A DNA stretch of 64,000 bases from Nibricoccus sp. (GCA_047602425.1 JASGHG010000001.1:3424001-3488000), one strand, 5' to 3'. Counted from the stretch's first letter, positions 44,466 to 57,616 are shown. The notes: a model not told the origin generated them from the letters alone. Made by a program: numbers and translations.

Positions 44466-44960
44466 TCAGCTTTTGGAAGCCGGCGGAATCAGGCTGCGGA
44501 TATAGTCGATCAACGAAGGGATGGCTTCGACCATTTCGTCGCGACTGGCTTCATAGTGTTTAAGCGAACCGCCGTAGGGATCGACGATCTCATGGTCGGC
44601 CGGTGCGGGCATGAATTCGCGGAAAAGGTGCACATTTTTCGCAGGCGGATCGAACGCCACCTGGATCATCGACCGGTGCGATTCCGTCATGCAGAAAATG
44701 GCCAGCGCATTGCGAACGAGGTCCTGGGTAAGCGGCTGGGCGACGTGGCTGGCGATATTAAGCCCGACTTTTTTCAGCGCCTGCACCGAGTTTTCAGAAA
44801 CCCGTTCCCCCGTGCGCGCCGAGACGCCGGCCGAGATGACTTTGATCGATTTCAGCGGTTCAGGCTGCGCGCGAAGCGCATGTTGCAACAGAGCCTCGGC
44901 CATCGGACTGCGGCAGATGTTGGCGGTGCAGACAGTGAGAATATAAACCGGTTCACCCAT
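44466..44960 (-). CDS. Low-molecular-weight protein tyrosine/arginine phosphatase
   Basis: VCTANICRSPMAE and DPYGG motifs. Confidence 0.92.
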   Translation of the reverse strand: MGEPVYILTVCTANICRSPMAEALLQHALRAQPEPLKSIKVISAGVSARTGERVSENSVQALKKVGLNIASHVAQPLTQDLVRNALAIFCMTESHRSMIQVAFDPPAKNVHLFREFMPAPADHEIVDPYGGSLKHYEASRDEMVEAIPSLIDYIRSLIPPASKS

Positions 44961-45015
44961 GCTGTGGCGGTGGCCAATGGATACAGTTTGTTGAAAAAAG
45001 CAAAGCCGCTTTTGG

Positions 45016-47481
45016 TTAACGTCGGTCGGAAACGAATCGACGGCAGCGCACCATGCGCGGTGCGACGAGCAGCGCAAGTGCGGTCAAAAGGAAAGTCCCT
45101 GGCGCGCCTCCACCGCCTCCTTTTGACGACGGTGATGCACCAGAACCGGACGAACCGCCGCTCGACGACGAAGAACTGCTGCTGGACGAACTCGACGACG
45201 AGGACGATGCACCCGAGGAGGAACTGGAGCTTGAAGACGAATTGGTAGCCTGAAGTTGCACGACGGCATTGTTGCTCGTGGTTGAGCCGGCGGAGTTGGA
45301 AATAACGACCGAATATGTGCCGGCGGAGGAGACGCTCGCGCTGGCAACGGAATAGGTGCTACCGTTAGCGCCGACGATGAGCTGGCCGGCCAGACGCCAT
45401 TGATATTGGAGATTTGTACCGGTTGTGGTGACGTTGAGCGTGAAACTTGATCCTGCGGCGACGGAGGTGAGCGCAGCGGGTTGCGACGTGATGGCAGGCG
45501 GCGTGTCAGCGGTGGAAACGGGAATTGCAGCGCTGAGCGGAGAAGTATTGCCGACAGCATCGAACGCGTTGACCGCGTACGTGTAGGTCGTGCCGGCGAT
45601 GAGTCCGGTATTGGAGAACGATGTGGCGGTCGTCGTGGTGAGGAGATTGCCGTTGCGATAAACACCGTAGCCGGTGACAGCGACATTGTCGGTCGAAGCG
45701 GTCCACGAGAGATTGATCTGCGAGGTGGAAATGGGCGTGCCCGCAAGATTCGAGGGAATGGTCGGGGCGGTCGTATCGCCGGGGCCTGTGTTAGAGGGAT
45801 TGAGAATTGAATAGTTGTTCGAACCGGCGGCGACGTAGGCGAGGTAGCGACGATAAGCGGGATTCCCGCCGTTGACGGTGGCAAGGTCAGGACCGTTGCC
45901 CGGCCATTGGCCGGCGTCCCACCAACTTGGTTTTGCGGACAAATACATCGATGAGGGAATGGTGTGATCGGAATTCGCAGTGTCCCACGTGACCAGATTG
46001 GTTTTAAACGAATAGTTTCCGTGGAGGTAGGTCGTGGTTATAGTATTCTGATCGTAGCCTTGGCTGGCGTCGGGCGGAAAAATCTGGCCAATGACGGAGT
46101 CGGTGACGCCATAGCCCGATGGATAACTCCGCGTATCGTCGCCAGGACGATTCAGAACGCAGCCGACGCAGGAATTGTAAGGATTGTCACCGGCGATCCA
46201 GATGCCAATGCGACCGAAAAGGCGCAGATTGTCGGAGTAGGCTTCGGAGTAGGCGCGGGCCCAAACGCGGAAATTGAGGTTATGCGATGAACTGCCCCAC
46301 GTATTGTCGTGGACGATACGGGAAACAACATTGCCTTCAAACAGGTTCATGTACGGGTGGCTGCCGTGAGTATCCTGATCCTCGGTGATGGAGGAATAGT
46401 CACCCGTGTCGTTATTGCGAGGCGACACGCTCGCATTGTGCGCCATGACGATGCCGCTGCCACCACCCTCGAAAACCAAGGCGTGGCGGCCACCCATCAC
46501 GACACAATTTTCCACGAGATGGTTGGAATTGTAGTCGAAAAAGAAAATGCCGTACGAGCGCCCGGACTCGTGGTCCACGGCGAAGTTCGTGGAATCGATG
46601 GTGCAATTCCGCACGGTGCAACCAAAGGAATTGCCGATGCGAATGGCGGTGGCTTGGGGCCACTTGACGATACAATTCGTTATCCAGCTATCCGCCACGG
46701 CGCCCAGCCCCACACTTGAGCCGCCGCCTGTGGCCTGGGTTTTTTCAATAACCAAGTCTTCGATACCAATACCCATGGACAAATTCATGATTTGGTACTG
46801 CGGGCTGTTCGGCATATCGAGGTAGATGGCGGGCGAGAAAGTGACGGTGGAGCCGTTGACCGCACTGACCTTGACCACCTGGACCATGGTGGCGGTGGGA
46901 TTGCTGTTGGCCAACCAGGTGGCGACATTGGCGCTGTTGCCATAGCTGCGCGGCGTGACCCAACTGGGATTGGTCTGGGAAATGGCGACGTACGAGCCGG
47001 CGCTCAGGCCGGAGACATTGGCGGAAGTGAAATTGGTCGAACCTCGGGTGACGGATGACGTGATGGGAATTTTATTTCCCGGTCCGCCCCCGGGGCCGCT
47101 GATCATTTGAAATTCAGAAGTGCCATTGTACTGGATGACAGTGCTGGTCCCCGAACCGCGCAACGTGACGCCGCTCTTCATCGTTATGCCGGTGGTGCTT
47201 AAGACAAACGTGCCAGGGCCAAGCTTAACTACCTGTCCCGTCGGGCAGGCATTGATCGCGGTTTGGATCTGGTCGGTGGTTGCGCCACCGGTGAGCGTTT
47301 GGAAAATAGTGGTGCGACTGGGTATGCCACCGCTCACTCCGGCATTGGCCCAGGCACTGTCGGTTGGAATGCGCGTTGGATCGATGATCGCTCCGGATGC
47401 GCACAGAGCGCCGAGCAGCAACGCGGTCAGGAACTTGTACATTGAAGATAGGCCGATGTTGGTTCGGGTCATGCGTGGCAT
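45016..47481 (-). CDS. Secreted beta-helix (pectin-lyase-fold) protein with FN3, Ig, poly-Ser and Gly-rich TM tail
   Basis: Signal peptide, IQTAINAC..V.LGPGTF beta-helix start, DTTAPTIP..LSWTASTDNVAVTGY FN3, ITSQP..YQW Ig, poly-S and KGGGGGAPG-TM-basic tail. Confidence 0.85.
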   Translation of the reverse strand: MPRMTRTNIGLSSMYKFLTALLLGALCASGAIIDPTRIPTDSAWANAGVSGGIPSRTTIFQTLTGGATTDQIQTAINACPTGQVVKLGPGTFVLSTTGITMKSGVTLRGSGTSTVIQYNGTSEFQMISGPGGGPGNKIPITSSVTRGSTNFTSANVSGLSAGSYVAISQTNPSWVTPRSYGNSANVATWLANSNPTATMVQVVKVSAVNGSTVTFSPAIYLDMPNSPQYQIMNLSMGIGIEDLVIEKTQATGGGSSVGLGAVADSWITNCIVKWPQATAIRIGNSFGCTVRNCTIDSTNFAVDHESGRSYGIFFFDYNSNHLVENCVVMGGRHALVFEGGGSGIVMAHNASVSPRNNDTGDYSSITEDQDTHGSHPYMNLFEGNVVSRIVHDNTWGSSSHNLNFRVWARAYSEAYSDNLRLFGRIGIWIAGDNPYNSCVGCVLNRPGDDTRSYPSGYGVTDSVIGQIFPPDASQGYDQNTITTTYLHGNYSFKTNLVTWDTANSDHTIPSSMYLSAKPSWWDAGQWPGNGPDLATVNGGNPAYRRYLAYVAAGSNNYSILNPSNTGPGDTTAPTIPSNLAGTPISTSQINLSWTASTDNVAVTGYGVYRNGNLLTTTTATSFSNTGLIAGTTYTYAVNAFDAVGNTSPLSAAIPVSTADTPPAITSQPAALTSVAAGSSFTLNVTTTGTNLQYQWRLAGQLIVGANGSTYSVASASVSSAGTYSVVISNSAGSTTSNNAVVQLQATNSSSSSSSSSGASSSSSSSSSSSSSSSSGGSSGSGASPSSKGGGGGAPGTFLLTALALLVAPRMVRCRRFVSDRR

Positions 47482-47591
47482 GGGGATATCCCGTGGTTGG
47501 GCTAAGTTGCTCCGCGTTTAGCCAGCGACAACCCGAATGCTTCGTCCAACGAGCGTTTTATAAAAATTTAGGAAACGCCCGCCATTTGGCT

Positions 47592-48152
47592 TCAGTCCAC
47601 AATCATCACCTGATCGCCAACGCGCATTTCTTCGTAGAGGCTGATCAGATCGAGATTGGCCATATGGACGCACCCCGCGCTTTGCGGTTGGCCAAGACGG
47701 TGCTCGTGGTGCGTGCCGTGGATATATATGTAGCGTTCCTTCGTATCGACTTCGCCGCCTTGGTTCACGCCAGGTTCGAGGCCACGCAGCCAGAGGATGC
47801 GGCTCGTGATGAGATTCGATTTTTGCTCCTCCTCGGAAAACTCTGAGAAGTGCCGGCCGGTGGGCACACGGGCCTTGAAGACCATGCCGGGCGGTTGGCC
47901 GGCACCGATTCGTTCGGCAATTTCATGCAGTCCGCGGGGGGTGCCGAGTGAATTTTTAATATTGGACGGCGGACGTAACGATGTGGATATCACATAGCTA
48001 CGCACGAGCGAACTGTTCCGGTAAAATTGCAGCGTTTGTGTGGCGATCCGGACGAAAAGAAACCTTTCTGCGGACTTGATGCCGAGGCGCTCGCAGGTTT
48101 TGCTGACCAGTTCACACGAAGAAATGAATACATCGTCACTCACAGTAGGCAT
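47592..48152 (-). CDS. L,D-transpeptidase (YkuD) family protein
   Basis: TPRG, IYIHGT...SAGCVHM catalytic motif. Start is 48152 or GTG at 48143. Confidence 0.85.
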   Translation of the reverse strand: MPTVSDDVFISSCELVSKTCERLGIKSAERFLFVRIATQTLQFYRNSSLVRSYVISTSLRPPSNIKNSLGTPRGLHEIAERIGAGQPPGMVFKARVPTGRHFSEFSEEEQKSNLITSRILWLRGLEPGVNQGGEVDTKERYIYIHGTHHEHRLGQPQSAGCVHMANLDLISLYEEMRVGDQVMIVD

Positions 48153-49155
48153 CGTCGGCGCGACCGGCGCTGTTGGTCAAGAACTCGTCCGCCTGATGCA
48201 CGAGCGTAATTTCCCGATGTCCAAGCTGCGGCTTTTCGCCTCGGCTCGGTCGGCGGGCAAGACCGTGGAAAAGTTTGGCAAAAAATACGTCATTGAAGAG
48301 GCCAAGCTGGGTGCGTTTGCCGGTGTCGACATCGCTTTCTTCGCCGCAGGCGGCTCGGTCACGAAAGCTTTCGCGGCCGACGCGATCAAGAGCGGCTGTT
48401 TAGTGATTGATAAGAGTTCGGTTCATCGCATGGACCCGGCTGTGCCGCTCGTCATTCCCGAAATCAATCCGCAAGACCTGACCAAGCACAAGGGCCTCGT
48501 CGCCAATCCCAATTGCTCGACCGCTGTCACGCTCATGGGCCTGTATCCGTTGCACAAGGCTTTCGGTTTGAAGCGCTATTTTGCCGCGACGTTCCAGTCG
48601 GTTTCCGGCACGGGCGCCGAGGCGATTCGCGAGCTCGAAGACCAGACTCAGAGCTACGTGAAGGGTCAGCCGATGAACAAAAAAGTTTATCCGTACCAGA
48701 TTTTCCAAAACTGCATTCCGCAGGTCGATTCGTTCGGCGCCGATGGTTACACCGGCGAAGAGAACAAAATGATGCTCGAAAGTCGCAAGATCATGGGCCT
48801 GCCCGCGCTGAAGGTTTCGACCACCTGCGTGCGCGTTCCGGTCGTGCGTGCTCACTCGATCGCGGTGAATGCCGAATTTGAAAAGCCCGTCAGTGTTGCG
48901 GCCGCCCGCGAAGCGATTGCCGCGTTCGAAGGTGCCGAACTCGTCGACGATCAGGCGACGCGCAAGTATCCGACGCCGCTCGATTTCGCCGAAAAGGTGA
49001 AGTGCGGCGTGGGTCGCATTCGTATTGATACGGCTTTTGACAACGGTCTCTCGTTCTGGGTTTCCGGCGACAACCTCTGGAAGGGCGCTGCGATGAACGC
49101 CGTCCAGAACGCCGAGCTCATGATCAAGAACGGCTGGGTCAAAGCGAAGGCTTGA
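48124..49155 (+). CDS. asd: Aspartate-semialdehyde dehydrogenase
   Basis: VGATGAVG, ANPNCST, QSVSGTG, CVRVPV..AHS and DNLWKGAAMNAVQ motifs. Confidence 0.96.
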   Translation: MNTSSLTVGIVGATGAVGQELVRLMHERNFPMSKLRLFASARSAGKTVEKFGKKYVIEEAKLGAFAGVDIAFFAAGGSVTKAFAADAIKSGCLVIDKSSVHRMDPAVPLVIPEINPQDLTKHKGLVANPNCSTAVTLMGLYPLHKAFGLKRYFAATFQSVSGTGAEAIRELEDQTQSYVKGQPMNKKVYPYQIFQNCIPQVDSFGADGYTGEENKMMLESRKIMGLPALKVSTTCVRVPVVRAHSIAVNAEFEKPVSVAAAREAIAAFEGAELVDDQATRKYPTPLDFAEKVKCGVGRIRIDTAFDNGLSFWVSGDNLWKGAAMNAVQNAELMIKNGWVKAKA

Positions 49156-49205
49156 GCCGGTTTTCCGCGAGATGCCGCTTGGCAAACGGTTGACAAACCT
49201 GCCGC

Positions 49206-49235
49206 TTGCCACGTGCATTTCGCCCGCATTACGTT
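49206..49235 (+). promoter_or_regulatory. Candidate sigma-70 promoter of tRNA-Val
   Basis: TTGCCA-N18-TACGTT ends 9 nt before the tRNA. Confidence 0.4.
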
Positions 49236-49244
49236 TTCTGGATT

Positions 49245-49321
49245 GGACGCTTAGCTCAGTTGGTTAGAGCATCTCGTTTACACCGAGAGGGTCGGGGGTT
49301 CGAGTCCCTCAGCGTCCACCA
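49245..49321 (+). tRNA. trnV: tRNA-Val (anticodon TAC)
   Basis: Acceptor stem GGACGCT/AGCGTCC, D-arm AGCTCAGTTGGTTAGAGC, anticodon arm TCTCG-TTTACAC-CGAGA, T-loop GTTCGAG and encoded CCA. Confidence 0.97.
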
Positions 49322-49456
49322 CCTTCAACAGGGCGACCCGGTAAAGTGTGAGAAGCCGGAAACGGTAAACCCAGCCCCTAAAAGTCCCTGAGAAACAGCG
49401 TTGCACGCCGCGCGCGGACTCTCCATTCATTTTCCTTTTATCTCCCATAACTTCGC

Positions 49457-49942
49457 ATGCGACACACGCTCTCAGTACTCGTTGAAAACAAATTCGGCGT
49501 CCTTGCGCGCGTTTCCGGCATGTTCAGCGGACGCGGCTTCAACATCGATTCGCTCAATGTCGCGCCCACCCACGACCCGCAACTCTCGCGCATCACGGTG
49601 GTCCTGAAGGGCGACGATGCCGCGCTCGACATGGTCACCAAGCAACTTCGCAAGTTGATCAATGTCGTCTCGGTTGTCGATTTTCACGCCGGCGAAGCGG
49701 TGCAACGCGAGCTCCTGCTGGTCCGCGTGAAAGCCGATTCGAAGACCCGTTCGGAAATCATGCAGATCTGCGACATTTTCCGCGCGAAGATCGTGAATGT
49801 CGGCCACGAAGCCGTCATCATCGAGATTACAGGCGATGAGGGCAAAACCGCCGCGTTTCTCCGACTCCTCGAACCTTTTGGCATCCTGGAGATCGCCCGC
49901 ACCGGCCTGCTCGCCCTCAAGCGCGACCACGCTTCGGCCTGA
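49457..49942 (+). CDS. ilvN: Acetolactate synthase small (regulatory) subunit
   Basis: ACT domain HTLSVLVENKFGVLARVSGMFSGRGFNIDSLNV and EIARTG. Confidence 0.95.
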   Translation: MRHTLSVLVENKFGVLARVSGMFSGRGFNIDSLNVAPTHDPQLSRITVVLKGDDAALDMVTKQLRKLINVVSVVDFHAGEAVQRELLLVRVKADSKTRSEIMQICDIFRAKIVNVGHEAVIIEITGDEGKTAAFLRLLEPFGILEIARTGLLALKRDHASA

Positions 49943-49993
49943 CCCGAACTACGACCCATCGCTTAATTCTTATCCCACAACCCGCCACTTATC

Positions 49994-51019
49994 ATGCCCG
50001 CTAAAGTATACACCGACAAAGACGCCGATCTCGGCGTGTTCAAAAACAAAACGCTCGCTGTGCTCGGCTACGGTTCCCAAGGCCACGCGCACGCTCTTAA
50101 CCTGAAGGACAGCGGCTGCAAGGTCCTCATCGGCCTTTATCCCGGCTCGAAATCCCGCGACGTCGCCGCCAAGCATGGCTTCGAAGTCGTCGACACTGCC
50201 GAGGCCGTCCGTCGCGCCGATGTCATCATGGTCGGTTTGCCCGATATGAAGCAGGCTTCCGTTTACGAGAGCGACATCCTCCCGAACCTTTCCAAAGGTA
50301 AAACGCTGCTCTTCTCCCACGGCCTCGCGATCCACTTCGGCCTGATCAAGCTCCCGAAGGACGTTGATTGCATCATGGTCGCCCCGAAGGGCCCGGGCCA
50401 TATGGTCCGCCGCCTCTACGCCGAAGGCAAAGGCATGCCCGCCCTTATCGCTGTCGCCCAGGACAAATCCAAGTCCGCCAAGAAGACCGCGCTTGCTTGG
50501 GCCAAAGGTATTGGTTCGACCCGCGCCGGCGTTCTTCAAACTTCCTTCAAGGAAGAGACCGAGACCGATCTCTTTGGCGAGCAGGCCGTTCTTTGCGGCG
50601 GCGCTTCCGCCCTCGTGCAGGCCGGTTTTGAAACCCTCGTAGAGGCTGGCTATCAGCCCGAGATGGCTTACTTCGAATGTCTTCACGAACTGAAGCTCAT
50701 CTGCGATCTTATGTACGAGTCCGGCATTGCCGGCATGCGCTTCTCGATCTCCGAGACCGCCAAGTACGGTGATATCACCCGCGGCCCTCGCGTCGTGAAC
50801 AAGAAGACCAAGGCCGAAATGAAGAAGATCCTGACCGAAATCCAGACCGGCAAATTCACCAAGGAATGGGTCAAGGAGCACAAGGGCGGCTTGAAGAACT
50901 ACAACAAGCTCCTCAAGAACGGGGAAAAGCACCAGATCGAAAAGACCGGCGCCTACCTCCGCAGCATGATGCCTTGGATGGCCAAGAAGAACATCAAGAG
51001 CGTCCAAGCCGCCTACTGA
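49994..51019 (+). CDS. ilvC: Ketol-acid reductoisomerase
   Basis: [38 protein letters not shown] and AYFECLHE motifs. Confidence 0.97.
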
Positions 51020-51045
51020 GTTAAGCTCGCAATATTTAAAAATGC

Positions 51046-51086
51046 CAAAGGGCGCTGCTGGAATCATCCGCAGCGCCCTTTGTTTT
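51046..51086 (+). terminator. Intrinsic terminator after ilvC (possibly bidirectional)
   Basis: CAAAGGGCGCTGC/GCAGCGCCCTTTG 13-bp stem followed by TTTT. Confidence 0.8.
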
Positions 51087-51111
51087 AGTTAGAACAAATT
51101 ATTGGTTCGGT

Positions 51112-54033
51112 TTATGGGTGCCTTGCCCTTGCGGTCTTCGCCAAAGAGCAACCGCGAAGAGCCGTCAACAGGATCAGAATTCCGAAGAATTCAGTGGATG
51201 GCGCACCGCCGCCACCTTTTCCACCGCTGCCGCTGGATGAAGGGGCACCGGAGCTCGACGAACTGCTCGATGAAGACGAACTGCTCGACGACGAGGAAGA
51301 GCTGCTGGAAGACGACGAACTGCTGGAAGAGGATGAGCTGGAGCTGCTGCTTGAGGAAGAACTCGAACTGCCAGTGCCAACCGTGAGGATTGCGGGCAGA
51401 CTGGTTGCGTCGGGATTTACTCCATTCGATACGACGCAACGGAATTGATCGCCTGACATGCCCGCAGTGGCTCCCGTCACTTTCAAGGAGGAGGTGGTTG
51501 TGCCGGAATAGGCACCGCTATTGGTTAGGGTTGCCCAGGTGCTGCTGTTGTTCGGTCGGCGCTGCCATTGGTAGGCCAAAGGCGCATTGCCGGCGGCGAC
51601 TAAATTGAACGTGGCAGTACCGCTTATTGCGATCGTTTGGTTGGTGGGTTGGGTGGTAATGACTGGCGCGAGCGGTGTGGGATCAGGGAACGGATCCTGT
51701 GATACAATTCCGCCAGCCGATATGAGGAATGCCAGGACGCCCTGAGCGCTCGCTTGAAATGTTATCCCACTCGAAATCGTGACGGTGGTTTCGGTTCCGG
51801 AAACGGCCGCGATAATATTGTATCCCGTGTTGGGAGTAAGATCGGGCAAGACAACGCGATTAAGCGCAGTGGGAATTTTAAATGACAGTGGAAGTCCCGG
51901 CGCCGTCCCGGTTTTCGAGAACAGCGAGCAAAGGCCCGAACCATCGGGATAGGATAAATAGGCGCCTTCAACCGCACCGGAAACGACGCTGCCATTTGTT
52001 GTGGTCAGAGGACGCGCAGTGGCTGCTTGAACTGCTGAAGCGGCGGCATCGAACGCGGTGAGCCAGTTGTTGCTGGTAGCGGCCGGAGGACGAACTTCGA
52101 GACGATAGATTTTGCTGCTATTGGCTAGGTTCACCAATTGCACAGTATGGTTTTCGGGTAGCAAGGTGCTCACCCGGCCTCGGTAGAGCGGAGCGGAGGC
52201 ATAGATACCGGTATTGTCAATTACATCATAGCGAGTGGTTCCGCTGGCCGCGCCAGCTTGAGCAATCGGAGTCCGCATGAAGTGAAACCCCATCCACTGA
52301 TTTGCGGCAGTGGAATTCACGGTCGTGCGATCGTACACTAAAAAATAGTTGGGCCGTACGTAGAGCACTTCACGCGTCCAACCGGTGATTGGCGTGCCTG
52401 TCATATACATCTTTTCAAGGTTTATGCCGCGCATCACCACGTACGATCCAGTATCCTCAAAATGATTGAGAGAGGTGGTGGTGTCGCCGGGTCCATAGCT
52501 GTACTGTCCCCAGTAGCCACTGTTTCGCGCGGCGATGAAGGTGTTGTAGATACGGCGGCCATTGTACACGCCGTCAGTCTGTGTGCCGTAGGTTTCGGCA
52601 TATAAAAAATCGAACCACCCGTTAGAGTCATTTGTTCCAGGCGAGTTGCGCATGAAGGCTCCCCACGTATTGACGAGGAACTGTACGCCGCCGCGCTTGA
52701 TCGTGAGCGCTCCTTGGTCGAAGAATTGCTCACCCGCGCCGGCATAGCCGGTATACGGTCCCGACTGGAAGGCGGCCCAAACCGAGTTTGTCGTCCAGTT
52801 GCCGCGCATCGCAACCTGGCCATCTCCATTGGTTCGGTAGGAGCGCGTAATTTTATAGTCGGTCTCGGGCGCCGTGTTGTTCCAATGCAGAAACTCCGCC
52901 CAGGGCGCGGCTTTGTCGCCGGTCGACGTACGGATTTCCCTGGCGTATCTTTGTATCTCGGGCGATGTCGTGCCTCCGCTGATGCGGAGCAGGCCTGCGT
53001 ACTCGGTGGACCAATGAGCTTCGGCCGAGGTGGGATTGTCGCTTTCGTAGACAAAGCCACGGTCATCCACAGTCTGCAAATCGGGCCAGGTAAAGTGGGC
53101 CATCCACAGTGCGTGCCCTTCAGGATAAGCGAAGGGCTTTGCGGTGTCGTGCAACAGGTCCAACCCCTTGGCGGTCTGCGCGGCGACAATCGGACGCAAC
53201 ATGTTGAGCGTGCCGTTGGGGCCGTAATTCCAACCCTCAGGCCAGCCACCACCCGAAAGCCATTGGGAATAGTGCGGCTGCACCAGGCCATAGTGCAGGC
53301 GATTGAGCCAGTCGTCCCACATTGCGGCGGCCTTGGGATTGTCGCCTTCGGTCGCGAGCGCGGCGAGGCCCTTGGCGCAATAGTATCCCGCAAAATAATT
53401 ACCCTGTGGATGCCCACGGCCAAAGCCGCTGGTGTCGAACCATTCGGTCCATCTATTTATTTCGGTATAAATCTGCGTGCGATCGGCGTCGCTTAAAACA
53501 TCGTAGAGCCAATCATAGCCAATGGCGAGCGCCGGCACGTAGGCGCGAATGGACCAGCCGGAGTCTGTACTCTCGCGGCCGTGATGCACCGGGTCGGACA
53601 AAGCGAGCAGCAACTCACGGCCTTTGGCAGCATAGTTGGTTGCGCGCGTGGCATCGACGGTCTTGGCCACCTGATAACCAAGTGCGAGGGTGAACGCGGG
53701 CTCTAGGTAGTCGAAATATTGATAGCCGCCGGAAATGACGTTGCCGCTCGGGCCCGTGCCATCCGGAAACTGCACGCCTTTGGCGGCGAGCGAATCGCAG
53801 GTATTGCGCAACGTGATCCATGCACTGTCGGAAGCGGCGGCCCGCGTGCGCAGCGCTGCAATCGAAGTGGGCGTAAGCCACAAGCGAGGATGTGCGGTGG
53901 CAGCCTCGCTCAAACTCGTCGCCAAAACTAAAAAGAATGCAGGGCAAACGAGCAGGCGAAACACCTGGGATAAGAAGCCGCACCTACTCCAGGCGCTGAG
54001 ATCGATTGCTGGACGGGATTTTTGAATATTCAT
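51112..54033 (-). CDS. Secreted heparinase II/III-like (alpha/alpha toroid plus beta-sandwich) protein with Ig, poly-Ser and Gly-rich TM tail
   Basis: HPRLWLT, ALAIGYDWLY, GGGWPEGWNYG, MRGNW, DQG, YFLVYDR motifs; ITTQP..YQW Ig; about 40 Ser; KGGGGAPS-TM-basic tail. Confidence 0.8.
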   Translation of the reverse strand: MNIQKSRPAIDLSAWSRCGFLSQVFRLLVCPAFFLVLATSLSEAATAHPRLWLTPTSIAALRTRAAASDSAWITLRNTCDSLAAKGVQFPDGTGPSGNVISGGYQYFDYLEPAFTLALGYQVAKTVDATRATNYAAKGRELLLALSDPVHHGRESTDSGWSIRAYVPALAIGYDWLYDVLSDADRTQIYTEINRWTEWFDTSGFGRGHPQGNYFAGYYCAKGLAALATEGDNPKAAAMWDDWLNRLHYGLVQPHYSQWLSGGGWPEGWNYGPNGTLNMLRPIVAAQTAKGLDLLHDTAKPFAYPEGHALWMAHFTWPDLQTVDDRGFVYESDNPTSAEAHWSTEYAGLLRISGGTTSPEIQRYAREIRTSTGDKAAPWAEFLHWNNTAPETDYKITRSYRTNGDGQVAMRGNWTTNSVWAAFQSGPYTGYAGAGEQFFDQGALTIKRGGVQFLVNTWGAFMRNSPGTNDSNGWFDFLYAETYGTQTDGVYNGRRIYNTFIAARNSGYWGQYSYGPGDTTTSLNHFEDTGSYVVMRGINLEKMYMTGTPITGWTREVLYVRPNYFLVYDRTTVNSTAANQWMGFHFMRTPIAQAGAASGTTRYDVIDNTGIYASAPLYRGRVSTLLPENHTVQLVNLANSSKIYRLEVRPPAATSNNWLTAFDAAASAVQAATARPLTTTNGSVVSGAVEGAYLSYPDGSGLCSLFSKTGTAPGLPLSFKIPTALNRVVLPDLTPNTGYNIIAAVSGTETTVTISSGITFQASAQGVLAFLISAGGIVSQDPFPDPTPLAPVITTQPTNQTIAISGTATFNLVAAGNAPLAYQWQRRPNNSSTWATLTNSGAYSGTTTSSLKVTGATAGMSGDQFRCVVSNGVNPDATSLPAILTVGTGSSSSSSSSSSSSSSSSSSSSSSSSSSSSSSSSSSSSSSSSGAPSSSGSGGKGGGGAPSTEFFGILILLTALRGCSLAKTARARHP

Positions 54034-54054
54034 GATATTGAACCGAAAGATTTG

Positions 54055-56388
54055 CTACGAACGAGGGTTCTTCGTGATAACGAACCTTCGTATTGGTACC
54101 AGGAGAACCAGCGCGGCGAAATACCAGCAGGACGGAGCGCCGCCGCCTTTGCCACCAGTAGCGCCGCTGCTTCCACTCGATGAAGAAGCGCCCGAGCTCG
54201 ATGAACTGCTCGAGGACGACGATGAACTACTGGAAGGGGACGAACCGCTTGATGAAGATGACGAGCTGCTCGACGAGGAGGAACTACTGGAAGACGACGA
54301 GGAACTGCTGGAGGAAGATGAAGAGCTGGAACTGCTGCTGGAGGACGAAATGACGGTGACGGTTGCTGTGGCGGTTTTGGTTGGATCGGCTACACTCTTG
54401 GCGGTGACGTGGTAGGAGCCGGTGATGGCAGGCGCCGTGTAGACCCCGGAGGTATTGATCGTACCGCCGCCCATCTCAACCACACTCCAGGTGACGTTTT
54501 GATTGGTTGAACCGTAGACGATCGAAGTAAATGTTTTGGAGCTTCCCGCATTGACGTTCGCCTCTGGCGGGGTGATGGAAACGGAAACTCCAGCGGGTGT
54601 ACCGTCGAGCAAACCGAATTGATCGGCTGCGTTGACGGTGCCGGCTCCAACGGCGCCGATGTCGTTGCCATTCCCGCCCGCCAAATCGCCCGCATCGATC
54701 AGCGGGCTGCCGACGGCAGGCGTGTAGTATTGACGGTAAAGTTGGAGGATCTGCTTTACCGATAATATTCGGTTCCAAATATCAGCCCGGCTGAGCGTCG
54801 TATATCTCGGTGGCTGTGGTTGCATGAAACGAGGATTAACCTGTTCGTTGAGCAAACCGACGTCATTGGCCGGATGACTGTTGTCCGAGTAGTTACGGAT
54901 GGAATTGATTCCGGGGTTGTAGAATAGGTTGTAGTTGGTGGTTGTGTTTCCCGTCTTTGTGACGATGGGCGTGCCGTTGAAGCGGTAGAATACGTTGGAG
55001 TGGAGGTTGCCGGAAGATTGATCTCCGGCGATAAACGGAAATTGCGTCGCTGGGAAAGCGAAGCCATCGAGGGTGTTATTGTAGAATTGAACGCCGATTG
55101 GTCCGTAAATCATCCAGATGCCTGCGACGTCGACATCGCCTTCCGCGAAAATGTTGTGGTGGACAACCGCGTTGTCCTCGGTGATCCAAAGCCATTCGTG
55201 TCCTGCATTCAGCACCAGATTGTAGCGAAGCAATCCGCCAAAAGCCCGGATCGGCCACGAGCCGCCACTGATGAGGTTATGTTCGACGACAAGATCGGTG
55301 CTGGAATTCATTTCGAAATTATTGCCCTGGCTCCAGCCGCCAAAATAAATTTGGTCGGAAAGATTGCGCCGAATCTGAATTCCTGAACCACCAGTCAGGT
55401 CTATTCCCACACGAGGTCCGATCAGGATGTTGCTATCAGTATCCGAACCGCCGCCAAAGGTCCAATTTTTCCCGTTGTTTACCTCGATGCAGCTCAGACC
55501 TACATTGTTGCCCTGGAACAAATGCACGCCGGCTGAGGAGCCTTGGAGACGAATGCACGCGGTGGTTCCATCGGGTGGGGGGGCGTAATTAATGGGTAAC
55601 TGTGCCACCGGCATAAGCATGTTTGAGCGAAATTCGTTCGCGCGGATTGTTGCTGGTGAGTTGCCATTGAGGGTGAGATCGATGGTGTTACAGGCGTCAA
55701 AAACGCAGTTCTCGATGTCTACCGTTTGATTCGTGGTGATCGCCAGGCCCGCAGTCGTGCTGTCGAGAATGCCCAGTCCGGTGACATCGACGTATTTGAG
55801 GATAAGTTGTCCATTCCACGAGGGTTCTGAGCGAATTCTAAAACCGTTTCCGTTGATGCGAATTCGTGAGTTTGCTGTGCCGACTAAAGAATAGTTCTGG
55901 TTACCAGTTAGAACGATATCGGTGACGAGATTTATTGTCTGTCCGTAAAGGGGGGCATTATCGACGGTAATCAATGCAGCCTTGCTATCGAGAACCGCGC
56001 CTCCAACAAAATGCCCGCGCACCCAAATCCGATGCGTACCGGCCGGAATTCCCGACAGCGTGGTTTTATAGACCCAATATTCCGACGTGTCGCCGGGGAT
56101 GGTGACTTGGATCGTATCGTCGACCATCACTTCCACCGATGATGCGCGATTTTTGTTCGGCCAGTTATTGATGTCCTCCACCGCGGCGAAAACACGAACC
56201 GATGCTGGAGCCAGAAAATGTTGGCCGCTGATGGGACCCATGAGATGAGCGTAACGACCCGAGCCTTCCGACGGATTCGTTTGACCGAGGGCGGTCTGCA
56301 AAAAAGTCAGAAAGGCGAGAGTCAGAGGAACTACGTTCAGACAAGGTGGCAGCTTCAGGCCACGTGGGATAAATGGAAAAAAGTTCAT
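54055..56388 (-). CDS. Secreted beta-helix protein with Ig-like domains, poly-Ser and Gly-rich TM tail
   Basis: Signal-like N-terminus, Asn-ladder repeats (IRANEF, VEHNLI, VHHNIF, FYNNTL), SPLIDAG..DIGA, VSITP..VTWSV Ig, poly-S and KGGGAPS-TM-RR. The ATG at 56388 was chosen as start. Confidence 0.8.
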   Translation of the reverse strand: MNFFPFIPRGLKLPPCLNVVPLTLAFLTFLQTALGQTNPSEGSGRYAHLMGPISGQHFLAPASVRVFAAVEDINNWPNKNRASSVEVMVDDTIQVTIPGDTSEYWVYKTTLSGIPAGTHRIWVRGHFVGGAVLDSKAALITVDNAPLYGQTINLVTDIVLTGNQNYSLVGTANSRIRINGNGFRIRSEPSWNGQLILKYVDVTGLGILDSTTAGLAITTNQTVDIENCVFDACNTIDLTLNGNSPATIRANEFRSNMLMPVAQLPINYAPPPDGTTACIRLQGSSAGVHLFQGNNVGLSCIEVNNGKNWTFGGGSDTDSNILIGPRVGIDLTGGSGIQIRRNLSDQIYFGGWSQGNNFEMNSSTDLVVEHNLISGGSWPIRAFGGLLRYNLVLNAGHEWLWITEDNAVVHHNIFAEGDVDVAGIWMIYGPIGVQFYNNTLDGFAFPATQFPFIAGDQSSGNLHSNVFYRFNGTPIVTKTGNTTTNYNLFYNPGINSIRNYSDNSHPANDVGLLNEQVNPRFMQPQPPRYTTLSRADIWNRILSVKQILQLYRQYYTPAVGSPLIDAGDLAGGNGNDIGAVGAGTVNAADQFGLLDGTPAGVSVSITPPEANVNAGSSKTFTSIVYGSTNQNVTWSVVEMGGGTINTSGVYTAPAITGSYHVTAKSVADPTKTATATVTVISSSSSSSSSSSSSSSSSSSSSSSSSSSSSSSSSSGSSPSSSSSSSSSSSSSSGASSSSGSSGATGGKGGGAPSCWYFAALVLLVPIRRFVITKNPRS

Positions 56389-56755
56389 ATGCAGTGGAGT
56401 TGGGAAATGCGAGTGATGGTGCCACGGCATCCTTCGCGCAGTCAGGGACGAGAGGCTGACAACAACCCGAACCATCTGATCCCAATAGTTTCTCACGCTC
56501 CTGCTTTTAGGGGATTTTTTAAAAACCTCGCCGATTTGTTACCTTTAGGTTCTTGCAATTGGCTCAAGAAAGGATGGAGGCGAAAATGTGTATTCGAAGC
56601 TCGGATATCTGATCGCACACTTGTTTTCGTAACGGAGTTGTCTGCGTGGCAGGGGATTGAGAACGCGTTGAGCGACTGGCTACGATGAACAAAGGCGGCG
56701 AATAAATCGCCGTTTTCGACTGGCGGTCTTTCTGCGGCTGAACACTACTTTAGAC

Positions 56756-57616
56756 GTGTCCAAACTGATTCTAGCCACACGTAAAAGTCCCCTCGCGCTT
56801 GCCCAGACTGAGATGGTGGCGGCGCATCTGCGCGAAAAGCTCGGCGTCGAAGTCGACCTGCTGAAGATCGTTACGACGGGAGACAAACAGATCGAGTGGT
56901 CGCTTGAAAAGAAAGGCGGCAAGGGGCTGTTCACGAGCGAACTGGAACACGCGCTCGAACGCGGCGAAGCCGACCTTGCGATTCATAGTTCGAAGGATTT
57001 GCCCGGTGACATGCCGGCCGGCCTCGCCATCGCCGGCTATCTTCCGCGTGCCGACGTGCGCGACGTGCTTGTTTTGCACGCTGGCACCGCCAAACCAAAA
57101 ACAATTGCCACCGCCAGCTCGCGCCGCCGGATGCAGATTGCGAAACTTTTTCCTGAAGCCCAATTCACGGAAATTCGCGGCAACGTCGATACGCGTCTCC
57201 GGAAAATCGGCACCGATCGCCTCGCGGACGCCACGATTCTTGCCGCCGCGGGATTGAATCGGCTGGGCATCGGCAACTGGCCCGGCGTGGAATTTCATTC
57301 GCTTAGTTTTGAGCAAATGGTTCCGGCTGTTGGTCAGGGCGCGATCGCCGCGCAATGTCGGGCGTCCGACGCCGCAAAATTCTCCGCGGTTTTCGACGCG
57401 CCCACCGCGCGCTCGGTCACGATCGAACGCGCTTTTCAAAATGCATTGGGCGGCGGTTGCCACACGGCGCTCGGCGTGCACGCGACGGTCGACAGGGTTT
57501 ATTTGTTTCACGAAACCTGCGGCGTGCATCATTTTCCGCTGACGGCTGCGGAGGCGACCAACGCCGTTGACTACGCCCGGCAGATTTTAAAAACATTGAA
57601 GCTCATGCCCGCGTAA
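56756..57616 (+). CDS. hemC: Hydroxymethylbilane synthase
   Basis: ATRKSPLALAQ, TTGD, GKGLFT, HSSKD, RGNVDTRL, PAVGQG and GGGC motifs. Confidence 0.95.
   Translation: MSKLILATRKSPLALAQTEMVAAHLREKLGVEVDLLKIVTTGDKQIEWSLEKKGGKGLFTSELEHALERGEADLAIHSSKDLPGDMPAGLAIAGYLPRADVRDVLVLHAGTAKPKTIATASSRRRMQIAKLFPEAQFTEIRGNVDTRLRKIGTDRLADATILAAAGLNRLGIGNWPGVEFHSLSFEQMVPAVGQGAIAAQCRASDAAKFSAVFDAPTARSVTIERAFQNALGGGCHTALGVHATVDRVYLFHETCGVHHFPLTAAEATNAVDYARQILKTLKLMPA

Follow-up and report, generated by a model that had tools for sequence, protein, structure and literature searches.

The closest described counterparts of the proteins considered here are the GlyGly-CTERM/rhombosortase substrates (TIGR03501/TIGR03902), signal-peptide proteins in which unrelated passengers carry, as a suffix, a C-terminal Gly-rich motif, a short transmembrane (TM) helix and a basic end, and in which co-distribution and gene adjacency connect this suffix with a rhomboid protease of TIGR03902. 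In Vibrio cholerae, rhombosortase cuts VesB past the second Gly, the new end bears glycerophosphoethanolamine, and the bacterium's type II secretion system (T2SS) carries VesB to the surface (PMC6219818). VesB is laid out as immunoglobulin (Ig) domain, linker, GG, TM helix and basic end, and the Ig fold is the source of its secretion signal (PMC13393428). Haft and Varghese reported in 2011 that Opitutus terrae has one GlyGly target adjoining its rhombosortase and allowed for divergent tails in a Verrucomicrobium that has an orphan rhombosortase; the authors of TIGR03501 also stated that their model cannot recover every true case (PMC3237569). Further models cover GlyGly-CTERM variants, three of which were named by Haft and Haft in 2017 (PMC5300114). 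We describe a C-terminal tail shared by three minus-strand open reading frames (ORFs 1 to 3; 45016-47481, 51112-54033 and 54055-56496) in a 64,000-nucleotide stretch, hereafter the window, of the Opitutaceae genome of Nibricoccus sp. (GCA_047602425.1, JASGHG010000001.1:3424001-3488000). We regard as real a family-specific, uncatalogued GlyGly-CTERM variant that comes with a rhombosortase clade of its own and with unusually many targets.

All three ORFs end in the same order of parts: an Ig-like domain and a linker rich in Ser lead to Lys and a run of three to five Gly, after which come Ala-Pro, a hydrophobic segment and finally basic residues. This likeness had been noticed in a first-pass annotation made from the sequence, and it is genuine, as a tail profile built from other genomes matched all three proteins and reversed ORFs gave no match. 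The tails quoted there were correct but too short, and the proteins run a few residues further, to ...RCRRFVSDRR in ORF1, ...TARARHP in ORF2 and ...IRRFVITKNPRS in ORF3. The Ig domain ahead of the linker scores under the cut-off of Pfam Ig_3 (PF13927) in ORF1 and ORF2 and has no Pfam match in ORF3, while a local Ig profile matches it in all three. The layout resembles the Ig-linker-tail arrangement of the VesB/RssP system (PMC3237569, PMC6219818, PMC13393428), and T2SS-like genes are present here as well.

Pattern and profile searches across the whole 5.16-Mb genome found the tail on 34 proteins of 570-3,193 amino acids (aa), so that it is not limited to the three genes of the window. Two proteins with related ends were left out of this set: a VIT/vWA protein, which through its tail scores at the cut-off of the variant model TIGR03867, and a DUF1501 protein whose C-terminus is rich in Gly. 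A Gly-rich motif, a hydrophobic TM segment and a basic cluster are present in all 34 aligned tails, with the consensus Gly(2-9)-A-P-S/G-x-W-F/Y-hydrophobic-R. Gly is invariant at the end of the run (34/34), Arg or Lys stands 17 residues past the run in 32 tails, and Ala-Pro follows the run directly in 19. A profile made from 26 tails of other genomes gave 23 matches of at least 15 bits among the 10,645 ORFs of the genome, all within 38 residues of the C-terminus, with the window proteins at 33.0, 29.7 and 20.1 bits; as a control for chance, the reversed ORFs gave none. A signal-like N-terminal segment was seen by eye in frame in 33 of the 34 members, and in 33 the internal 19-residue hydropathy stays below 1.7. 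The gene of the GH44 member has its signal-like segment in another frame (G000:C1:1067724-1069448), through either an assembly error or recent damage.

The motif proposed at first, Lys-Gly(n)-Ala-Pro behind an Ig domain and a poly-Ser tract, needs to be narrowed. Lys directly precedes the Gly run in only 6/34 tails of this genome and in 0/52 tails at the protease loci of other genomes described below (clade B loci), which rules it out as part of the motif. Ser runs of at least 10 residues occur in 30 of the 34 own tails and in one of those 52, and most other Opitutaceae have a Pro/Thr-rich spacer in place of the Ser linker. Lys and poly-Ser are therefore local features, since they are rare or absent at clade B loci elsewhere. 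Ser tracts also lie inside tail-less proteins, nine of which have internal tracts of 37-54 residues between modules, and poly-Ser was rejected as a component of the signal. It was likewise rejected as a product of DNA slippage or a microsatellite, as all six Ser codons are mixed in the tracts. The Ig domain precedes the linker in the three window ORFs, as claimed, but an I-set-like Ig stands ahead of the linker in only 16 of the 34 members. Long Ser tracts between the modules of secreted polysaccharide enzymes are known from Saccharophagus and Cellvibrio (PMC2386152), whereas the tracts here mostly link a passenger to the sorting tail.

The first-pass annotation had reported no processing protease in the window. 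The window indeed contains no rhomboid, but three TIGR03902 rhombosortases are encoded elsewhere in the genome, at 710,048, 2,690,293 and 2,898,994, with scores of 110, 109 and 102 bits against a cut-off of 84. In a tree of 36 rhombosortases from 61 relatives and four other rhomboids, these three enzymes fall into three different clades. Clade A (11 rows, support 98/87) lies mostly behind a VIT/vWA gene with a GlyGly tail. The looser group C includes this genome's stand-alone enzyme as well as six whose genes adjoin those of rhombotarget lipoproteins, four of the latter confirmed by TIGR04179. Clade B (10 rows, support 100/100) has a long branch and comes, within the tree, only from tail-bearing genomes; the clade B gene of this genome lies directly behind two genes for giant tail proteins. 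The catalytic Ser (TM4) and His (TM6) are present in all 36 aligned enzymes, and the active-site region of clade B has Asn or Asp at +3, often Ala past the catalytic Ser, and a WFWP motif. The best 80 of 195 relatives of this clade B enzyme from 185,579 genomes are all labelled Verrucomicrobiota, Opitutia or Opitutaceae, the closest of these 80 being from a Nibricoccus metagenome-assembled genome (82%). A search for proteobacterial rhombosortases in plasmids gave three weak partial matches.

Tail and rhombosortase are distributed together. We surveyed 301 family genomes that are at least 85% complete, scoring at most 27 tail candidates in each, so that tail counts per genome are lower bounds. 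The tail profile matched in 101 genomes, TIGR03902 in 184 and the clade B profile in 78. Profiling the tail against rhombosortase had been suggested as a check, and a rhombosortase was found in 99 of the 101 tail-positive genomes, while 115 of the 117 rhombosortase-negative genomes have no tail; the assemblies of the two tail-positive genomes without rhombosortase are 88% and 91% complete. The tail is present in 77/78 clade B genomes, the clade B gene of the exception beginning 88 bases from a contig end, and absent from 199/223 genomes without clade B. Within genus g23, the same four of 13 genomes hold both tail and clade B, and in genus g18 clade B occurs in six of the seven tail-positive genomes. 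In a sample of the phylum, 13 of 26 family genomes have tails, and none of the 274 genomes outside the family has a true one, two weak matches there both being false. A sorting tail of motif, TM segment and basic end that is limited to one lineage, as first suspected, is thus borne out. Matches outside the family in G046, G351 and G447 were discarded, one as a PEP-CTERM-type tail and two as internal stretches of membrane proteins.

Gene adjacency points to the same enzyme. Among 80 clade B loci, which were chosen by the protease alone and include some from clade-defining genomes and five with less than 400 bases upstream, a tail gene lies directly upstream on the same strand in 45 and is convergent in three. 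In genomes with few tails, the upstream gene usually encodes a matrixin-like metalloprotease that carries an Ig domain as well as the tail. At 28/80 loci (e.g., L161:595-1269), a conserved secreted protein of about 225 aa without a Pfam match is encoded close to this metalloprotease-tail gene and in the same orientation. T2SS genes are scarce at these loci, with a GspE/PilB-like ATPase within 3 kb in 3/80 and neither GspD nor GspF in any. Tandem rhombosortase genes stand directly behind a tail gene at L070 (G021:C23:274611-275964) and similarly in G130, G156 and G301; the pair in G021 consists of clades B and C.

Compared with described GlyGly-CTERM signals, the tail has longer Gly runs, mostly followed by Ala-Pro, and a near-fixed Arg at +17. 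The next-best full-length matches of the tail profile include rhombotarget lipoprotein tails, a catalogued GlyGly variant, and four of six such tails share Arg at +17. Rhombotarget lipoprotein (TIGR04179), the MprA tail (TIGR03867) and the VIT/vWA cassette are likewise variant tails that need their own models (PMC5300114), and the VIT/vWA and rhombotarget lipoprotein variants occur in the same family, beside rhombosortase clades A and C. These are single-target cassettes, whereas the present tail has its own protease clade and is carried by 1 to 34 unrelated passengers per genome. In the 2011 survey the maximum was 13 targets and two rhombosortases in one genome, compared with 34 and three here, and no enzyme gene adjoined its targets where targets were many, apart from two dedicated cases (PMC3237569); the genome described here, with its many targets, does show such adjacency. 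PEP-CTERM and VPDSG-CTERM (exosortase) and MYXO-CTERM (myxosortase) signals share the layout of motif, TM segment and basic end and the many targets per genome. The present tail differs from them, as PEP and VPDSG motifs are absent from the 34 aligned tails, no Cys is invariant (one tail alone has Cys straight after the Gly run), and the best scores remain under the cut-offs: at most 16.3 bits against 20 for MYXO-CTERM (TIGR03901), with two window tails at 15.4 and 14.7, and 15.6-16.4 bits against 25 for the best own tails with NF050189. The PGAP-CTERM, MYXO-CTERM and Heimdall-CTERM models were accordingly set aside. The tail with Cys belongs to a pectinesterase/pectate lyase protein (L021, G000:C1:3205700-3211060) and matches no Cys-type sorting model. 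The DUF1501 protein left out of the set (L026, G000:C1:5045542-5047134) has a Tat-like start and closes with a run of Gly, a segment of weak hydrophobicity and basic residues; it may represent another GlyGly variant. A full-text literature search, thin in subscription journals, found no paper on a many-target Opitutaceae variant, and the accessible part of the myxosortase preprint (10.1101/2023.06.07.544157) adds nothing on the present tail.

We propose that the tail is an Opitutaceae variant of GlyGly-CTERM and that, by analogy with VesB, the whole chain of rhombosortase cutting, lipid attachment and T2SS display probably applies to it. Export would take place through the N-terminal signal peptide, which was recognized by eye. 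Between the Gly run and the conserved Arg lie 16 residues that would form a stop-transfer helix with the basic end inside, and the tail would hold the protein in the inner membrane until it is cut. Rhombosortase very probably cleaves the tail, with the predicted cut at the end of the Gly run, as co-distribution, gene adjacency and VesB suggest, and the clade B enzyme at 710,048 is likely to be its main reader. The new C-terminal Gly might then, as in Vibrio, be joined to a phosphatidylethanolamine-type lipid. A phosphatidylserine decarboxylase gene is present in the genome, split by a frameshift in the assembly (G000:C1:2972946-2973588; assembly error or recent damage). Proteins with an added secretion signal, a role that the Ig domain may play as it does in VesB, would pass through the outer membrane via the T2SS and come to stand at the surface on a flexible Ser stalk; gspG scores over its cut-off in the genome.

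Several observations weigh against this proposal. None of the three window tails matches TIGR03501, and among the 34 tails one reaches its cut-off of 15.5 bits and three more score 13-14 bits, so that the model misses 33/34. The claim that the tail is distinct from GlyGly-CTERM is accurate as far as this model goes, but the tail is better described as a variant of a known system; the counter-possibility raised with that claim, an ordinary signal with a standard rhombosortase, is partly matched by the three enzymes above the TIGR03902 cut-off. According to Haft and Varghese, virtually all rhombosortases have His four residues past the catalytic Ser (PMC3237569). This His is found in none of the 36 aligned enzymes and at none of the 80 clade B loci, and it is missing even from enzymes beside catalogued GlyGly targets. 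The TIGR03501 cut-off and this one enzyme signature are the only tests that the system appears to fail. There are also 24 tail-positive genomes without a clade B match, of which 22 have a rhombosortase of a different kind, and the enzyme behind a tail gene in G006 is of clade C; clade B is therefore not the sole possible reader. The family genomes are related, so that the co-occurrence counts are not independent events, and Fisher tests on them were set aside for this reason. As for display, the tail alone leads in Vibrio to membrane association and not to surface display (PMC13393428), and the gspD/E/F-like cluster has T2SS as its best match yet scores under the cut-offs.

The last two points would also suit proteins that are cut by rhombosortase without being displayed, whether they keep a periplasm-facing lipid anchor or are shed into the medium. 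In Vibrio, beta-lactamase with the tail alone remains in the inner membrane or periplasm, VesC is set free by a cut in its linker (PMC13393428), 18/34 members have no I-set-like Ig ahead of the linker, and members reach 3,193 aa. We nevertheless consider this unlikely, as many passengers target polymers (pectin lyases, GH44, GH53), which favors exposure to the outside, and T2SS-like genes do exist in the genome. A permanent, uncleaved inner-membrane anchor, with shared ancestry as the sole link to rhombosortase, is more doubtful. Poor cleavage could be read from Pro two residues past the Gly run and from the absence of the His signature, but the adjacency to an intact rhomboid gene is conserved at 45/80 loci, tail and rhombosortase are jointly present or absent within genera, and the sequence motif is conserved beyond the needs of a plain anchor.

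A further reading, close to the idea of the first-pass annotation, has the tails belong to a sorting system of their own with a different protease, of the exosortase or CPBP/myxosortase type, for which the genome offers four exosortase-family and two CPBP-family matches. The two window tails near the MYXO-CTERM cut-off would fit such a reader. We judge this very improbable: the tails have neither an invariant Cys nor a Pro-Glu-Pro motif, VPDSG-CTERM targets for exosortase exist separately, CPBP matches occur also in 11 of 14 control genomes, and neither family recurs upstream of clade B, whereas tail genes do. Returning to rhombosortase processing of a GlyGly-CTERM variant, a wider scenario can be offered tentatively, as a possibility that we would not expect to hold in full. 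Several rhombosortase channels would operate side by side in each Opitutaceae cell, with clade B, its active-site region rebuilt, reading only Gly(n)-Ala-Pro; this channel would have arisen from a one-target metalloprotease cassette, would now be the main route of display for dozens of giant glycanases, and in some genera would help signal peptidase to split membrane-threaded polyproteins of 4,000-5,000 residues into individually anchored enzymes.

The passengers are diverse. Among the 31 members outside the window, ten have carbohydrate-enzyme Pfam matches (GH43, GH44, GH53, rhamnogalacturonan, pectate and alginate lyases, and pectinesterases), five are metallopeptidases, four are DUF5122 propellers and four have no match. 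A purely glycan-active cohort, as first suggested, fits the look of the three window passengers but not the metallopeptidases. In ORF2, the passenger matches the profile of 3afl (E 2.5e-10), and its structure model (predicted local distance difference test, pLDDT, 93.9) matches 3a0o (E 8e-24) and 2fuq (TM-score 0.66) in Foldseek, making action on glycans likely on the strength of the model. Such action is plausible for the ORF1 passenger from its sequence and weakly supported for that of ORF3, whose model (pLDDT 92.5) has the GH28 enzyme 2uve as best Foldseek match (E 3.5e-7, TM-score 0.30) and a weak likeness to GH28, PL6 and GH136 structures. Sequence searches of the PDB with ORF1 and ORF3 gave only Ig/Fn3 matches or none. 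The window proteins would thus be two beta-helix glycanases and one heparinase II/alginate-lyase-like enzyme. The tail is found on none of the listed homologs of the three window passengers (0/90, 0/120 of 173, and 0/120 of 125; 0/330 overall), in searches that used one length window and returned some partial homologs. Most of these homologs stop at the catalytic domain, and a few end in type IX secretion system, dockerin or MYXO-CTERM domains. The unit of Ig domain, linker and tail is therefore an added suffix, because passenger homologs are without it and some have other C-terminal domains. Judging by contigs of equal length, tail-free homologs of the ORF2 and ORF3 passengers seem to co-occur (P0094, P0009/P0110, P0036/P0112, P0008/P0115, P0002/P0202), and P0094 has an ORF3 domain followed by the beginning of an ORF2-like domain. 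The two types may form a functional pair on one polysaccharide.

The tail system probably explains how a family common in soil and freshwater anchors its large secreted glycanases and peptidases, nearly all of which escape the current NCBIfam models. It also offers many natural substrates of a bacterial rhomboid. With three paralogous rhombosortases in a single genome, each associated with its own type of tail, rhomboid specificity can be tested directly by swapping tails. Since the mechanism is known already from Vibrio, the surprise is moderate.

Table 1 Features of the three tail-bearing ORFs (window coordinates), with tail-less Ser-tract proteins and polyprotein loci.
Feature	Position	Strand	Remarks
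ORF1: signal peptide (by eye), beta-helix, Fn3, Ig, Ser linker, sorting tail	45016..47481	-	likely start 47442
ORF1 passenger, right-handed beta-helix	45802..47388	-	PF13229 over cut-off; most homologs carry PF12708 (pectate lyase superfamily)
ORF1 Fn3 and Ig domains	45265..45756	-	PF00041 over cut-off; PF13927 under cut-off
ORF1 Ser-rich linker, 40 aa	45121..45240	-	range takes in Lys ahead of Gly run
ORF1 tail: K, Gly5, AP, hydrophobic segment, Arg at +17, basic end	45019..45123	-	
ORF2: signal peptide, polysaccharide-lyase-like domain, Ig, Ser linker, sorting tail	51112..54033	-	
ORF2 passenger: helical toroid and beta-sandwich, oligoalginate lyase/heparinase II fold (predicted)	51694..53901	-	profile, structure model, Foldseek
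ORF2 Ig domain	51406..51666	-	PF13927 27.3 bits, under cut-off; local Ig profile
ORF2 Ser-rich linker, 51 aa	51217..51369	-	
ORF2 tail: K, Gly4, AP, hydrophobic segment, Arg at +17, basic end	51115..51219	-	
ORF3: signal peptide, Fn3-like domain, beta-helix, Ig-like domain, Ser linker, sorting tail	54055..56388	-	ORF opens to 56496; likely start 56388
ORF3 passenger: N-terminal beta-sandwich and right-handed beta-helix (predicted)	54601..56286	-	homologs carry PF13229; structure model
ORF3 Ig-like domain	54229..54465	-	local Ig profile; no Pfam match
ORF3 Ser-rich linker, 67 aa	54148..54348	-	
ORF3 tail: K, Gly3, AP, hydrophobic segment, Arg at +17, basic end	54058..54150	-	
Tail-less Ser-tract proteins	G000:C1:145935, 148230, 560592, 563136, 664595, 860786, 1104034, 2287839, 4132667		
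Polyprotein locus, G028	L105:3004-17898		
Polyprotein locus, G085	L131:6842-18724		
Polyprotein locus, G103	L132:2-12661		

Three relatives that represent two genera (G028, G103 and G085, the last assembled as a single contig) have two tail proteins joined in one reading frame of 3,961-4,994 aa with GH28, NHL and many Ig domains. At the junction, an internal Gly(n)-Ala-Pro tail is followed, without a stop, by a basic stretch, a signal-peptide-like segment and the second passenger. No stop interrupts the first junction in any of the three genomes, that of G103 being without Met, and G028 has a second open junction into a protein that by eye is TonB-dependent-receptor-like. The junctions fit the predicted topology of the tail, and their sequence suggests that signal peptidase and rhombosortase may both cut these polyproteins.

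The neighbors of the three ORFs in the window (44466-50105, 49994-51019 and 56756-57616) are housekeeping genes. They include hemC, genes for a low-molecular-weight phosphatase and for a YkuD L,D-transpeptidase, and others that by their sequence resemble asd and ilvN/ilvC. Housekeeping genes also stand between ORF1 and the pair of ORF2 and ORF3.

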